The notes: a model not told the origin generated them from the letters alone. Shown: positions 17,061-33,838, counted from the first letter of the stretch. The stretch: 35,530 nucleotides of DNA from an uncultured Planctomycetales bacterium (GCA_964359035.1 CAYHRM010000001.1:1-35530), one strand, 5' to 3'. Program-made: numbers and translations.

Positions 17061-17149
17061 ATTAGGGGACGCTTCTATTTTTTAAAATAATTGTAGCGGA
17101 GGTTTAAACCTCCGCTACTTAATCATAATAAATAGAAACGTCCCCTAAT
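17061..17149. repeat. Family-A inverted repeat, copy A1 (20-nt arms, 49-nt spacer)
   Basis: The arms are ATTAGGGGACGCTTCTATTT (17061..17080) and AAATAGAAACGTCCCCTAAT (17130..17149), complementary at 19 of 20 positions. The right arm includes the stop codon of the upstream gene. Confidence 0.85.
17093..17118. repeat. Family-B perfect palindrome, copy B1
   Basis: GTAGCGGAGGTTTAAACCTCCGCTAC is a 26-nt perfect palindrome centred on GTTTAAAC. It sits inside the spacer of A1. Confidence 0.85.
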
Positions 17150-19953: not shown

Positions 19954-20976
19954 TTATTTATAAAACTTATCCACATCACCTAACTTACTTTTAAGCCAAG
20001 CCTGATGCTTAAGCGACCAATCCGCTGTAAACTTAAGCCCCTGAAGAAGCTTAGCGCTCGGTTTCCAGCCAAGCTCTTGAGTAACTTTTTTAAAATTCAG
20101 GCTATATCTTAAATCATGGCCTAAACGATCCTTAACAAACTCAAATCTATCCTGGCTAACATGCATAATTTTTAACAATAATTTAACTGTATCCATATTC
20201 TTACTTTCACAGGCACTGCCTAAATTATAAATCTGCCCGATTCTGCCTTTATTCATAATTGTCAATATACCTTGCACGCAATCATCGACGTAAAGCCATT
20301 CACGCACATTTTGGCCGCGCCCATAAACTAGAATGTTTTCACCCTTTAATATTCTCAAAATAGCCAAAGGAATAAGTTTTTCCGGATACTGCCAAGGCCC
20401 ATAATTATTTGATGGCCGGATAATTATAGCAGGAAATTTATACGTTCGAACATATGACTGCACCAAAAGATCTGCGGCCGCCTTAGAAGCCGCGTAAGGG
20501 CTGTTTGGCTTAATTGGCGAATTCTCATTGAATTTACCCTTGGGGATCTCTCCATAAACTTCATCCGTAGAGATATGTATAAATTTACTTACTTTATATT
20601 TACGGCTAGCGTCCAGAAGTACTTGAGTTCCCTTAATGTTCGTATCGATAAACGGCGTGGCGTCATCAATGCTACGGTCCACGTGGCTTTCCGCAGCAAA
20701 ATGTAAAACTATTTCCGGTTTTTCTTTGGCAAAAATTAAATCAATTTGCTTTTTATGGCAAATATCAATTTTATAAAATTTAAATTTATTTTTTATTTCT
20801 TCAAGACGCTGAAGATCACCAGCATAGGTGAGTTTGTCGACAATAACAATATTAGATTGCTTCGGCGCTACGCGCCTCGCAATGACAGATGGATTGCCAA
20901 TGACGAGCCTTACAAAAGCGCTACCGATAAATCCTGCGCCGCCCGTAATTAAGATTTTAGGTATTCTTTTACGCAT
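19954..20976 (-). CDS. rfbB: dTDP-glucose 4,6-dehydratase
   Basis: 340 aa with ILITGGAGFIGSAFV, VDKLTYAGDL, HFAAESHVDRSI, HISTDEVYG and SPYAASKAAAD. It carries an extra segment, VIARRVAPKQS, in the loop after helix 1 (see findings). Confidence 0.92.
   Translation of the reverse strand: MRKRIPKILITGGAGFIGSAFVRLVIGNPSVIARRVAPKQSNIVIVDKLTYAGDLQRLEEIKNKFKFYKIDICHKKQIDLIFAKEKPEIVLHFAAESHVDRSIDDATPFIDTNIKGTQVLLDASRKYKVSKFIHISTDEVYGEIPKGKFNENSPIKPNSPYAASKAAADLLVQSYVRTYKFPAIIIRPSNNYGPWQYPEKLIPLAILRILKGENILVYGRGQNVREWLYVDDCVQGILTIMNKGRIGQIYNLGSACESKNMDTVKLLLKIMHVSQDRFEFVKDRLGHDLRYSLNFKKVTQELGWKPSAKLLQGLKFTADWSLKHQAWLKSKLGDVDKFYK
20855..20886 (-). repeat. Family-C repeat unit embedded in the rmlB coding sequence
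   Basis: The minus strand reads GTCATTGCGAGGCGCGTAGCGCCGAAGCAATC. It is identical at 29 of 32 positions to 25718..25749. Confidence 0.85.
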
Positions 20977-24083: not shown

Positions 24084-24141
24084 GGGACCGTTTCTATTTT
24101 TCTAGGAACTGCCCCCATCAAATAAAAATAGAAACGGTCCC
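24084..24141. repeat. Family-A inverted repeat, copy A2 (18-nt perfect arms, 22-nt spacer)
   Basis: The arms are GGGACCGTTTCTATTTTT (24084..24101) and AAAAATAGAAACGGTCCC (24124..24141). The element fills the gap between the rpsA stop (24148) and the tyrS ATG (24073). Confidence 0.85.
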
Positions 24142-24147
24142 TTTTAA

Positions 24148-25689
24148 TTATAGCCGTGCTGTCAGGCCAATCTTTGCCTGCTCCACATCCACCTTAATTA
24201 CTTTTACCTTTATTTTATCTCCAGGCTTAAGATTAGCAACAGTTTCTTTTTCAATCTCGCTAGAATAAATCAAGCCCTCCAACTCATCATCAATCTTAGC
24301 AAATACTCCGAATTCAGTAAGGCTGGAAACCTCTGCCTCTAATTGCGTATCCAGCGGATAACGCTCAGCAATTTTTGCCCAAGGATTCTCCTGCAATTGC
24401 TTTAACCCTAAAGCAATCCGCCGATTTGTCGCATCCACTGACAAAATAGAAACATCAATCTTCTGCCCCTTCTTTAAAACATCCTGAGGATGGCCGATTC
24501 TTTTGGTCCAGGAAATATCGGAAACATGAATCATCCCTTCCAGATTAGAATCCAACTCCACAAACGCCCCATACTCTGTGAAACCGCGCACCTTACCGGA
24601 CACGCTAGAGCCCACCAAATACTTGCTCTCTGCTTCCAGCCAAGGATTCTGCTCCAACTGTTTTAGACTCAATGAAATCCTGCGAGAATCTTTTTCTACG
24701 CTTAAGATCTGAGTTTCTACCATGTCTCCGACGGCAAACATCTCCCCCGGATTATTCACACGCTTAGTCCAGGAGATTTCAGAAACATGGATTAAGCCTT
24801 CAATCCCTTTTTCCAGCTCCACAAAAACTCCGTAAGGTAAAATATTAACCACTTTACCTTTTACCTTTGAACCGATGGTAAACTTGCCTTCAATATCTTT
24901 CCAGGGATCAGACAATCTTTGCTTAAGGCCTAAAGAAACTTTGCCAGAAGCCTGGTCAAGATTTAAGATCATTACTTCAATCTTATCTCCGAGTGCCACA
25001 ATTTCAGATGGGTGGCTAATCTTGGACCAAGACATATCTGTAATATGTAACAGGCCATCTAATCCACCTAAATCAATAAAGGCGCCAAAATCCGTAATCG
25101 CCTTGACTAACCCGGGATAGATATTACCAATCTTTAATTCACCCCAAATTTTACCCTTAGCCACATCTCGATCCGCCTGCACTGCCTCGCGGCGGCTGAC
25201 AATAATACTCCGCCGTAAATTATTCACCTTAACAATCTTAAACTTGAATATCTTATACAAGATATCTTTGTCCGCAATATTCCTAAAAGAAGAAAGCGAG
25301 CTCGGCAAAAACCCTTCAATCCCCATAATATCTACTAGGAACCCACCCTTAACCTTCTTTACCGGTTTCCCATCGACCAATGTTCCATCATTAGATAACT
25401 TAACAATTTTATCCCAGCCCTGCATGCGCATAGCTTTTTCACGCGACAGGGTCATTACCCCGAAATCATTTTCCATGGTCTCCAGCAAAAACTCCATCTC
25501 TTTGCCAATCTCCAAATCCTCGGTGCTGAATTCAGCAATGGGGACGATACCTTCTGATTTAAAACCCACATCCACTAAAACTTCTTTAGTTTTAATTTCA
25601 ACAATTTTACCACTGACAACTTGGCCTTCTTTTAAAACCTTAATACTTTGGTTATACAATAACTCTAATTCTGATCTTGAATCTGACAT
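24148..25689 (-). CDS. rpsA: 30S ribosomal protein S1
   Basis: 513 aa with six S1 (OB-fold) repeats, for example [33 protein letters not shown] and [26 protein letters not shown] lies 8 nt upstream of the ATG. Confidence 0.93.
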
Positions 25690-25716
25690 TTTAAAATCTC
25701 CTTATAATTTTTAACA

Positions 25717-25786
25717 CGTCATTGCGAGGCACGAAGTGCCGAAGCAATCCCGTTAGAGAGATTGCTTCGCTTCGCTCGCAATGACG
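25717..25786. repeat. Family-C repeat: two units in inverted orientation
   Basis: The left unit is GTCATTGCGAGGCACGAAGTGCCGAAGCAATC (25718..25749). The right unit (25760..25785), reverse-complemented, reads GTCATTGCGAGCGAAGCGAAGCAATC. A 10-nt centre separates them. Confidence 0.85.
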
Positions 25787-25923
25787 GTAATTTGAACAGT
25801 AATATATTTAATTGTTTTCTTTATCTTAATCGTTAAACAAAATAGCCAAAGTCAACCGCTTTAATTTCATGACTTGGCTCCCCCTTTCTATGCGAATTTG
25901 TTCGTAGTATAAACCTCTCGATA

Positions 25924-27312
25924 TTATACCCCATCTTTTAAAATTATTTCTTTACCCAGCGCCAACAACTTCTTAGCCTGAGCAAGGCTTTTAGCCTCAG
26001 CATAAGTACGCATAATCGGCTCAGTGCCTGAACCGCGAAACATCAGCCAACTCTGATCCTGGCAAATAAGCTTAATTCCGTCGTAATCCTTAACCTCAAC
26101 AACTTTTTTTCCTAATAATTCCTTAGGCAGATTTTCTTTTTTTGGCTCAACGCGCTTAGCCAAATGAAAATCCTGGCGCACATAATAAAATTTACCAAAC
26201 TGTTTTTCCGTTTCATTAAGAATCTTTAGGATATTTTTATTGCGATAAACCATCATTTCAATTAACAAAAGCCCGGCCATGGTTCCGTCGCGCTCAGGGA
26301 TATAATTCTTAACTCCCATCCCGCCTGCTTCTTCACCGCCGGCAACAATATCCTGGGTTTCCATAAGATCCGAGATGTATTTAAAACCAACAGGAGTCTC
26401 ATAAAGTTTAATCCCTAAAAATTTAGCGATATTATCCATCATCGTAGAGCCACAAATAGTTTTAACTAAACCCCCGCTCCAATGCCGGTCCTGATTCAAA
26501 TGCAACGCTAACAGGCCCAAAATCTTCTGGGGATGAATAAATACGCCACCCGGAGCCACGGCCGCAATCCGATCTGCATCTCCATCCAGAGCAATACCTA
26601 AATCAAACTTTTCATTTTTTACCCGCGCTTTTAACTGTTCTAAATTTTCCTCTACCGGTTCAGGACGGCCACCATCAAAAGAAGGATTAATCGTGTTACG
26701 CATAAACTCTAATTTTATTTTACTGCCCTTAAGCACCTGGGCCATAAAACTATCCCCTGAGCCATACATCGAATCCACTAAAACCTTAAATTTTTTATTT
26801 TTAATTTTCTTTAAATCAATATAATTACGGATAAATTTTATATAATCCTTAATTATATCCACTACCTCAATGGATTCAACTAAAGCGGAATCTTTTACTA
26901 AAGTTACCCCCAGCAGGCTCTCAACTTTCTGGGTCAATTCTTGGCTCGCTCCGCCGCCAGCAGCATTCTTAATTTTAAAACCATTATATTCTGCCGGATT
27001 ATGCGAAGCCGTAATCATGATCCCTAAATCCAATTTACGCGCTTTAACAATAAAACTTAATGCCGGAGTAGGTGTAGGCCGATCAGAAAGAAGTACTTCT
27101 AAGCCATTGCTTTTTAGAACAATGGCGGCAGTTTGTGCAAATTTAGCCGACATAAAACGCGTATCATATCCTACGGCAACCTTTTTACCGGCACCTAAAA
27201 AATCCGCTACTGCCTGGGTAAGGATTTTAACATTTTCTAAAGTATAAGTATCCGCAATAATTGCTCTCCAGCCGTCCGTGCCAAACTTAATTTGTGAAAC
27301 CGCATTACTCAT
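25924..27312 (-). CDS. Phosphoglucomutase/phosphomannomutase-family phosphohexomutase
   Basis: 462 aa. The active-site serine loop is TASHNPAEYNGFK, the Mg loop is ALDGDADRIAAV and the sugar loop is GGEEAGG. The SD is GAGGAG. Confidence 0.9.
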   Translation of the reverse strand: MSNAVSQIKFGTDGWRAIIADTYTLENVKILTQAVADFLGAGKKVAVGYDTRFMSAKFAQTAAIVLKSNGLEVLLSDRPTPTPALSFIVKARKLDLGIMITASHNPAEYNGFKIKNAAGGGASQELTQKVESLLGVTLVKDSALVESIEVVDIIKDYIKFIRNYIDLKKIKNKKFKVLVDSMYGSGDSFMAQVLKGSKIKLEFMRNTINPSFDGGRPEPVEENLEQLKARVKNEKFDLGIALDGDADRIAAVAPGGVFIHPQKILGLLALHLNQDRHWSGGLVKTICGSTMMDNIAKFLGIKLYETPVGFKYISDLMETQDIVAGGEEAGGMGVKNYIPERDGTMAGLLLIEMMVYRNKNILKILNETEKQFGKFYYVRQDFHLAKRVEPKKENLPKELLGKKVVEVKDYDGIKLICQDQSWLMFRGSGTEPIMRTYAEAKSLAQAKKLLALGKEIILKDGV

Positions 27313-27358: not shown

Positions 27359-27394
27359 CACCAGTAGTGGGGGTTTAAACCCCCACTACTGGTG
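27359..27394. repeat. Family-B perfect palindrome, copy B2
   Basis: CACCAGTAGTGGGGGTTTAAACCCCCACTACTGGTG is a 36-nt perfect palindrome between the rpe stop and the mutase start. No U-tract follows it on the transcribed strand. Confidence 0.85.
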
Positions 27395-31975: not shown

Positions 31976-32011
31976 CAGTAGTAGTGTGGGTTTAAACCCA
32001 CACTACTACTG
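31976..32011 (-). terminator. Family-B perfect palindrome, copy B3; plausible intrinsic terminator after rng
   Basis: CAGTAGTAGTGTGGGTTTAAACCCACACTACTACTG has a 15-bp stem. On the minus strand it is followed by GTTATTTGTCTATTTTTTAG. Confidence 0.55.
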
Positions 32012-33782: not shown

Positions 33783-33838
33783 AGGGGCCGTTTCTATTTT
33801 TAATCCTAATCTAACCAAGAAAAGTAGAAACGGCCCCT
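33783..33838. repeat. Family-A inverted repeat, copy A3 (18-nt arms, 20-nt spacer)
   Basis: The arms are AGGGGCCGTTTCTATTTT (33783..33800) and AAAGTAGAAACGGCCCCT (33821..33838), complementary at 17 of 18 positions. The element lies between the secretin stop and the DUF2344 ATG. Confidence 0.85.

Follow-up and report, generated by a model that had tools for sequence, protein, structure and literature searches.

The 70 nucleotides just upstream of rpsA in the stretch of DNA we analysed (35,530 nt, which we call the window) are, in our judgement, probably a gene-less, tail-to-tail doublet of a hairpin repeat of the CGTC-tagged REP or Ssn-related-motif (SRM) class. The full form of this repeat encloses the gene for a putative Ssn-type nuclease, and the copy beside rpsA would be there incidentally. 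The pair itself is far beyond chance, because the exact unit pattern occurs 33 times in the window's own genome assembly (G000; 1.31 Mb in 188 contigs, 38.6% GC), because the reversed control pattern has no occurrence in any of 401 sampled Omnitrophota genomes, and because the doublet has fold z-scores of -8.1 as DNA and -5.5 as RNA. The exact pattern is present in 171 of the same 401 genomes, at 1 to 173 copies each, a tally over related genomes and related repeat copies that are not independent of one another. A literature search with the unit's letters returned only unrelated primer strings.

Anatomy of the doublet and its family

As a consensus the unit reads (C/T)GTC-ATTGC-GA-(variable GC hairpin)-GAA-GCAAT-C. 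Its termini, (C/T)GTCATTGCGAG on the left and (C)GAAGCAATC(T/C) on the right, are nearly invariant, and the 6 to 40 nt between them vary from copy to copy. The initial annotation had described conserved termini flanking a variable core, and this description holds family-wide. It had also described two units, of 32 and 26 nt, facing each other across a 10-nt centre and ending about 27 nt upstream of the rpsA start codon, every part of which the sequence confirms (the ATG is at 25689). The coordinates of these and the other features discussed here are collected in Table 1.

Table 1. Features of the window and of its genome. Positions are those of the window unless a contig of G000 is named.
Feature	Position	Strand	Description
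Left unit	25718-25749	+	32 nt, GTCATTGCGAG-GCACGAAGTGCC-GAAGCAATC, C in front (CGTC)
Left unit with head and tail	25717..25751	+	CGTC head, tail CCC
Doublet centre	25750-25759	.	10 nt, CCGTTAGAGA, between the two tails
Right unit	25760-25785	-	26 nt, GTCATTGCGAG-CGAAGC-GAAGCAATC, C in front
Right unit with head and tail	25758..25786	-	Minimal form
rmlB unit	20855-20886 (20853..20887 with flanks)	-	TGTC head, inner hairpin GGCGC-GTA-GCGCC
rmlB ORF	19954-20976	-	Pfam GDP-mannose dehydratase/epimerase matches
rpsA ORF	24148-25689	-	Six S1 domains
rpsA ATG	25687-25689	-	Doublet ends 27 nt upstream
rpsA ribosome site AAGGAG	25700-25705	-	Doublet ends 11 nt upstream of AAGGAG
Promoter-like site TTAAGA-17-TATATT	25829-25801	-	Weak, consensus match only; just upstream of the doublet
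plsC-type relic	25826-25900	-	Last ~25 codons of an acyltransferase gene
GTAG-type REP	17092-17119, 27363-27390, 31980-32007; G000:C95:3541-4215		
Y1 gene	G000:C95:3667-4005		RAYT-like
Third inverted-repeat family	17061-17149, 24084-24141, 33783-33838		Arm GGGGACG(C/T)TTCTA; intergenic
GIY-YIG cassette	G000:C11:17697-18065		Unit > GIY-YIG < unit
GIY-YIG gene	G000:C11:17733-18014		94 aa, single domain, exactly between two ATTGCGAG units, heads outward
Tandem half-units	G000:C11:17635-17696		Two, ~32 nt each, beside the cassette
In-frame units	G000:C19:11266-11369		Two, inside a long ORF
Second GIY-YIG gene	G000:C143:1222-1616		81 aa, other subfamily, beside tRNA genes

Written out from 25717 to 25786, the doublet is ACGTCATTGCGAG-GCACGAAGTGCC-GAAGCAATC-CCGTTAGAGA-GATTGCTTC-GCTTCG-CTCGCAATGACGG. 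The left unit, whose hairpin-forming ('top') strand is the plus strand, has an outer stem of 5 bp (ATTGC/GCAAT), an internal loop (GA/GAA) and an inner hairpin (GGCAC-GAA-GTGCC), and its predicted DNA fold of -7.4 kcal/mol gives exactly that arrangement of head, outer stem, internal loop and inner hairpin. The top strand of the right unit is the minus strand, which is also the sense strand of rpsA. Here the core CGAAGC gives GCGAAGC, the classic DNA mini-hairpin, and the same minimal 26-nt unit recurs in four other genomes (G081, G044, G225 and G052). We dropped the idea of a conserved asymmetric spacer in the centre: other doublets have centres of 7-14 nt, counting the end bases, of the form C(T/C)(C/A)...(G/A)G with a variable A/T-rich middle, and no sequence beyond the tail extension is conserved. 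The third unit in the window stands alone and is translated as part of the rmlB frame. Between it and the left unit there are three differences, exactly as the initial annotation had it: an inner-stem G to A with its partner C to T, which exchanges a G:C pair for an A:T pair, and a T to A in the triloop.

Across the whole genome we count about 45 units. Tail-to-tail doublets, whose centres are short, number 10; there are also 3 head-to-head pairs, one tandem pair and about 13 singles. Within a doublet the two cores are hardly ever the same. A rough ORF call puts 17 units inside open frames and 28 in intergenic sequence, where nearly all of them occupy short gaps with co-directional genes on either side (23 of the 24 that could be classified). 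To see more of the family we drew 117 units with 95 distinct cores from this genome and from fetched loci; the heads among them are CGTC (73), TGTC (36) and AGTC (7).

A position between co-directional genes would suit an intrinsic terminator, or a hairpin protecting the 3' end of the upstream mutase transcript, and stabilisation of the mRNA upstream of them is a known effect of REPs (reviewed in PMC3733652). The doublet has the first of these features in common with nearly all of its intergenic relatives. What follows the hairpin, however, is TGTTAAAAATTAT rather than a run of T, a terminator scan was empty at 25717-25786, and the element sits 137 nt past the mutase stop codon, right before the next ribosome site, and is not conserved among relatives. 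We rejected a terminator for want of the T-run, and rate this explanation, 3'-end protection included, as most improbable.

The units matter to anyone annotating such genomes. They explain spurious peptides (...VIARxxxxKQS... or ...LRSQ...), inserts that keep the frame of housekeeping genes, and places where contigs of metagenome-assembled genomes break off. One long ORF on contig C19 contains two units in frame, which read ...LSLRGAEGDEAN... and ...RIASGTPCPRNDE... in translation; a Y1 transposase gene lies about 600 nt away and has no units flanking it. The family also has fragmentary forms. Beside the cassette on contig C11 lie two tandem half-units, GTCATTG(C/T)GAGGCGTAA(C/T)ATGCCCATTGCTTC, with the right terminus in the opposite sense, and tandem head arrays (...CTCGCAATGAC every 25-30 nt) flank cassettes at four other loci (L041, L056, L059 and L148).

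Two further repeat families share the genome. The GTAG family has the consensus (A/G)GTAGTG(G/T)GGGTTTAAACCC(C/A)CACTAC(T/C), so that this one genome holds both REP superfamilies, each with its own enzyme. The third, an inverted repeat with the arm GGGGACG(C/T)TTCTA, gives about 45 pattern matches in the genome with both strands counted, and it turns up in congeners at two hot spots, the rpsA site and a cupin locus to which we return below.

Folding of the unit and the rpsA site

The predicted fold of the unit leaves the head GTC unpaired, closes the outer stem ATTGC/GCAAT, opens into an internal loop with GA in its 5' arm and GAA in its 3' arm, and then closes the inner hairpin, which begins at the last G of the left terminus; the tail C-Y is unpaired. 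Over the 95 cores, 74% of mirror positions are Watson-Crick paired, against 30 ± 1.6% on shuffling and a maximum of 36% in 1000 shuffles. We aligned, ungapped, the 42 distinct units of equal length. Five of the six inner pairs have changed on both sides, double-change cells number 66 against 26 ± 3 in shuffles (0 of 500 shuffles reach 66), and the covariation score is 0.31 where slid-partner controls stay at or below 0.07. In this alignment the outer stem is invariant, and family-wide the head and tail are nearly so; the outer stems of sister families do change, in pairs (ATTCT/AGAAT, ATCCT/AGGAT and ATTCC/GGAAT). The initial annotation had taken the difference between the rmlB and rpsA copies for a compensatory change in a small hairpin under structural selection, and had proposed a covariation test on all genomic copies. 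The paired changes, the mirror pairing and the excess of double changes bear it out for the inner hairpin, which covaries strongly, and find the outer stem fixed within the family. The compensatory change it had noticed is no rare double substitution: cores vary throughout the family as long as the fold is kept, and this is one instance.

Is the structure one of RNA or of single-stranded DNA? Both had been put forward, and we think that single-stranded DNA, on one strand, is the more likely. Triloops of the C-GNA-G kind close 35 of the 95 cores (GAA 19, GCA 6, GTA 6, GGA 4) and are the commonest loops; GCGNAGC and GNA loops closed by C-G are known as very stable DNA mini-hairpins (PMC13037366, PMC3201870). 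Where mirror positions of the top strand are not Watson-Crick pairs, they are A·G or G·A 100 times and C·T or T·C 15 times, the latter being the form that a G·A pair of the opposite strand would take; from this imbalance we place the tandem purine pairs on the head-bearing strand only, with pyrimidine mismatches on its complement. In 85 of 100 units the head-bearing strand also folds the more stably, a figure owed partly to the constant parts that all units share and made up of counts that are not independent. The GNA triloops, the one-strand G·A pairs and the link to a nuclease described below all argue for single-stranded DNA over RNA, as do the orientation of single intergenic units relative to their flanking genes (on our reading 3 sense and 7 antisense) and the presence of units inside coding frames.

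An RNA reading has been put forward for rpsA, where the pair could be a regulatory structure of the S1 mRNA leader, stabilising or autoregulatory and selected as RNA. Its hairpins covary, its RNA fold has the z-score given at the outset, and it stands between a promoter-like site and the nearby ATG. The match is weak; with a start from that site the doublet would span about +8 to +78 of the S1 transcript; the equivalent position in one congener (G018) has a better copy, TTGAGA-17-TATATT. If transcribed, the doublet would by prediction add a hairpin of -45 kcal/mol to the leader and leave the ribosome site AAGGAG unpaired. Any effect of the doublet on S1 expression is presumptive. Against all of this stand the loops and mismatches, which are of the DNA-hairpin kind, the excess of antisense over sense single units, and the forty-odd other copies in the genome, beside unrelated genes and inside ORFs. 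No Rfam family matches either: a scan of 25400-26100 at a permissive threshold gave SSRC34 as the best hit, at chance level (26 bits against a gathering threshold of 64, E 0.21).

The comparison with congeners also counts against a leader structure. Throughout the genus the gene order mutase-rpsA is kept and the spacer between the two is not. Twenty other loci of the genus have a readable upstream region, and 19 of them lack the pair; the family is found at the rpsA spot in G023 only. There, as in the window, an ATTGCGAG doublet lies between a relic block and the ribosome site, and its core and flanking sequences differ from ours. Elsewhere the spot is occupied by a GTAG REP (G012), by other CGTC-type REPs (G024), by a GGGACG-TTCT hairpin (four congeners) or by yet another insert, beginning CGTC, at the same junction as in the window (G018). 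About nine genomes have nothing there. Relatives whose S1 is 96% identical to that of the window's genome have either nothing or a different repeat, G017 being among the empty ones. The site is thus hot, or permissive, for hairpin repeats, and the initial annotation's suggestion that the pair has a special relation to rpsA finds no support. A single genus-mate with the same family, and relatives that are empty or hold other repeats, argue against a dedicated S1 element. From these loci the doublet appears to be a recent and incidental insertion, and neither a conserved leader nor a dedicated S1 control element. The result for rpsA is therefore a negative one, no conserved leader element at the doublet site, and we consider a leader structure quite improbable.

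The site has points of its own. At least four unrelated families of hairpin repeat have settled there in the genus, next to a highly expressed gene. The conserved block upstream of the doublet is a relic, the last ~25 codons of a plsC-type acyltransferase gene that is intact between mutase and rpsA in some congeners, with its HX4D and FPEGTR motifs, and deleted in the window's genome and most close relatives. A hairpin in the relic covaries between species (GCCAAGTCA..TGACTTTGGC here, GCCTTATCAG..CTGATAATGGC elsewhere), and the piece may carry a promoter or leader signal for rpsA.

The linked GIY-YIG gene and the spread of the repeats

The initial annotation had recommended looking for a linked enzyme, a RAYT/TnpA-like protein or another nuclease. 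The second possibility stood and the first did not. Profile searches of the genome returned three Y1_Tnp genes and three GIY-YIG matches, and one of the latter, on contig C11, lies between units of the family. The upstream unit ends 13 nt before the ATG, and the TGA stop directly abuts the GATTGTTTCG... of the downstream unit. The protein matches Pfam GIY-YIG at 64.5 bits, and its Y7, Y18 and E65 are invariant in 29 relatives. With its tails pointing inward, the cassette has the layout of the rpsA doublet plus a gene.

That layout is widespread. It recurs in nearly all of the best 30 loci of the phylum, and a strict automatic test of 108 loci found units on both sides of the gene in 62 and on one side in 26. 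The 108 include Omnitrophota, Patescibacteria, Cyanobacteria, Chloroflexota, Bacteroidota, Nitrospirota, Planctomycetota, Elusimicrobiota, Alpha- and Gammaproteobacteria and others; in all, a unit-bracketed GIY-YIG gene is found in the window's genome and in relatives across more than 15 phyla, and public Omnitrophota records carry the cassette. The gene itself is patchy: a cutoff of E<=1e-8 finds it in 167 of the 401 genomes, and one of E<=1e-18 in 101. It is often present in several copies and sometimes interrupted by stops. It accompanies the repeat: 30 of the 44 genomes with at least 20 units have it, against 71 of the 357 others, giving an odds ratio of 8.6 that overstates the association, related genomes not being independent. 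The other 14 high-copy genomes have no gene of this subfamily, several of them being incomplete; three (G079, G194 and G340) have weaker matches only, one of these partial.

The protein and the repeat also vary together. Proteins with the motif K-x-G-S-R after the REKQIK block keep company with ATTGC stems, as at 121 of 126 flanking units, and xWxR proteins with ATTCT, ATCCT, ATTCC, ACCCC or ATGCT stems and never with ATTGC (10 of 10). This fits a direct reading of the outer stem by the protein, and makes the four-residue motif a testable handle on how a 94-aa nuclease may read a hairpin, a matter of some relevance to programmable cutting of single-stranded DNA. The C11 protein is 51-58% identical to homologues from Micavibrio, Bradyrhizobium and Rickettsiaceae, and two proteins 56-57% identical to it (at loci L114 and L137) are flanked by a near-canonical NTS, CGTCATTCC...GGAATCCAG. 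A PDB sequence search with the C11 protein found no close structure (the best were the I-TevI catalytic domain and UPF0213 proteins, E ~0.003), NCBIfam has no specific model for it, and a literature search found no paper joining GIY-YIG with 'repetitive extragenic palindromic'. All told, the predicted partner enzyme of the unit family is an Ssn-type GIY-YIG nuclease. Elsewhere in the genome, on contig C143, is a second and more distant GIY-YIG gene, where a piece of ~55 nt from a tRNA gene end is duplicated on both sides, other GC hairpins adjoin and a run of N follows; an assembly artefact is possible there.

Inverted hairpin doublets are also the layout of REPINs, and a genome encoding three Y1_Tnp proteins could move a REP doublet by means of a RAYT, a Y1/HUH transposase. 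The RAYT-like gene on contig C95 is instead bracketed on both sides by pairs of the GTAG-type palindrome GTAGTGTGGGTTTAAACCCACACTAC; the other two Y1 genes adjoin neither the ATTGCGAG nor the GTAG family, so that no ATTGCGAG unit lies beside any Y1 gene, and the head of the unit is CGTC, not GTAG. Given those flanks we rejected a RAYT as the partner enzyme, and a REPIN origin of the doublet has hardly any claim on our belief.

How, then, might the elements work and spread? By analogy with SsnA, the nuclease would bind the top strand in its folded, single-stranded DNA form by way of head, outer stem and tail, and its cut would fall a few nucleotides 5' of the head. Nothing but folding would be asked of the inner hairpin, which could drift by paired changes; cassettes and doublets would spread or reshuffle through single-strand events. 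A bolder reading brings these strands together. The cassette of ~370 bp would be a self-contained mobile element whose only gene encodes an Ssn-type single-stranded DNA nuclease, with no transposase, recombinase or intron. Doublets of the rpsA type would be its non-autonomous miniatures, whose movement in trans would pass through single-stranded DNA. The xGSR or xWxR motif would read head, outer stem and tail as an address, the free inner hairpin would give each copy its own 'barcode', and highly transcribed or single-strand-prone spots, such as the promoter-proximal one at rpsA, would be the landing sites that hairpin repeats prefer. We offer this combined picture tentatively, as a possibility short of an even chance.

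One locus occurs in several states. Upstream of a small cupin gene the window's genome has the cassette and its nearest relative, G004, a gene-less tail-to-tail doublet; in five congeners the site is empty and the flanking genes abut, and in two a hairpin repeat of no relation to the unit is found there. Occupation of the site thus varies, with doublet and cassette as alternatives of which either may have come first. Between the G000 cassette and the G004 doublet the cores differ and the flanks are rearranged, so descent of doublets from cassettes is not demonstrated there; the clean filled-versus-empty pair that we sought at this locus, for a doublet derived from a cassette, was not found. 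As regards a MITE, inverted arms and a gene-bearing counterpart are there, and a target-site duplication was not seen at the rpsA and cupin loci; nor did we see a clean excision footprint.

The relationship could also run the other way. The doublet would then be a target that spreads by some other route, a homing-type GIY-YIG gene would have invaded its centre, and the rpsA copy would be a target as yet uninvaded. The gene does fill the space between the tails exactly, its stop fused to the tail (TGA|GATTGC, TA|GATTGC), high-copy genomes without the gene exist, the doublet and the cassette at the cupin locus differ in their cores, and the nearest solved relative is, if weakly, the catalytic domain of I-TevI. 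Yet the protein is a single domain of 94 aa with no DNA-binding domain of the homing type, and SsnA never cuts double-stranded DNA (PMC11893778), which classical homing requires. The co-variation of motif and stem is predicted by both readings. We think invasion of a pre-existing target unlikely, and continue to favour a doublet that belongs to the nuclease's own repeat family.

Comparison with known systems

The closest known system is that of SsnA, a single-domain GIY-YIG protein of 94 aa, and its repeat NTS/dRS3, CGTCATTCCCGCGMAVGCGGGAATCYRG (Chenal et al. 2025, Nat Commun 16:2388, PMC11893778). SsnA binds and cuts the NTS as single-stranded DNA only, and on one strand only; a GTC before the palindrome governs cutting and a C after it governs binding; and ssn genes are typically flanked by the motif, as NTS-ssnA-NTS (PMC11893778). 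The likenesses, drawn with SsnA from its published description, are close. The C11 protein is of the same length and architecture, and its Y7/Y18/E65 are spaced (11 and 47 residues) as are Y6/Y17/E64 of SsnA. Its gene sits between inverted hairpin repeats, and genomes are found to have gene and repeats together. The unit's head (C)GTCAT and tail AATC-Y fall at the positions critical for cutting and binding by SsnA. The differences are in the repeat and in the host. In our unit an outer stem of 5 bp, a GA/GAA loop and a hypervariable inner hairpin take the place of the one contiguous conserved stem of an SRM; the host here belongs to a free-living candidate phylum, and the unit family reaches the CPR, Cyanobacteria, Chloroflexota, Bacteroidota and others. 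None of the 117 units fits the SRM pattern HGTCWYN(0-2)YYVSBRHN(0-5)WNVSBRGN(0-2)RNCYNB, which the NTS consensus controls do fit, although 116 of the 117 fit its head HGTCWY. We do not claim, in view of the pattern, that the units are SRMs as published; head, tail and context are what they have in common. As far as sequence can tell, repeat and nuclease very probably work as Ssn and SRM do and belong to that family, with a variant design of the repeat. The published search for Ssn-related motifs thus misses a major and very widespread design.

The repeats themselves resemble the CGTC-tagged REPs, which are headed by CGTC or TGTC, have A-T as the first pair of the stem and end in short tails, and which include the dRS3 of Neisseria and RPE-4 and RPE-6 of Rickettsia, with no dedicated enzyme reported (Di Nocera, De Gregorio, Rocco 2013, BMC Genomics 14:522, PMC3733652). 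The unit shares the CGTC/TGTC head, a stem running from A-T, T-A, and a short C-rich tail; it too forms inverted dimers, mostly heterodimers, with copies between co-directional genes and some in frame within genes. Families 1-4 of those REPs have a continuous stem of 8-9 bp and a loop of 4-5 nt, whereas our unit is bipartite, with its 5-bp outer stem and 2x3 loop, and its inner hairpins mostly end in triloops. Di Nocera's dimers are mostly head-to-head and the doublets here mostly tail-to-tail. The link to an enzyme, unreported there, is clear here, and would provide a partner for CGTC-tagged palindromic repeats that have been 'orphans' in a large uncultivated phylum and in many others.

With REP/REPIN-RAYT systems, in which doublets of hairpin repeats go with a RAYT (Bertels and Rainey 2011, PMC3116915), the likeness is one of organisation: inverted hairpin doublets, and a small gene within its own repeats that would act on single-stranded hairpins. 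A system of that GTAG type is present in the same genome. A RAYT, however, is an HUH Y1 transposase and not a GIY-YIG protein, the head tag is different, and the RAYT gene here is flanked by the other repeat family. The kind of system, a hairpin repeat with an Ssn nuclease, was thus already known from the work of 2013 and 2025. The present analysis adds the explicit link between repeat and nuclease for a very widespread unit, the bipartite design of that unit, in which the inner hairpin is hypervariable, the evidence from strand asymmetry, and the co-variation of protein motif and stem.
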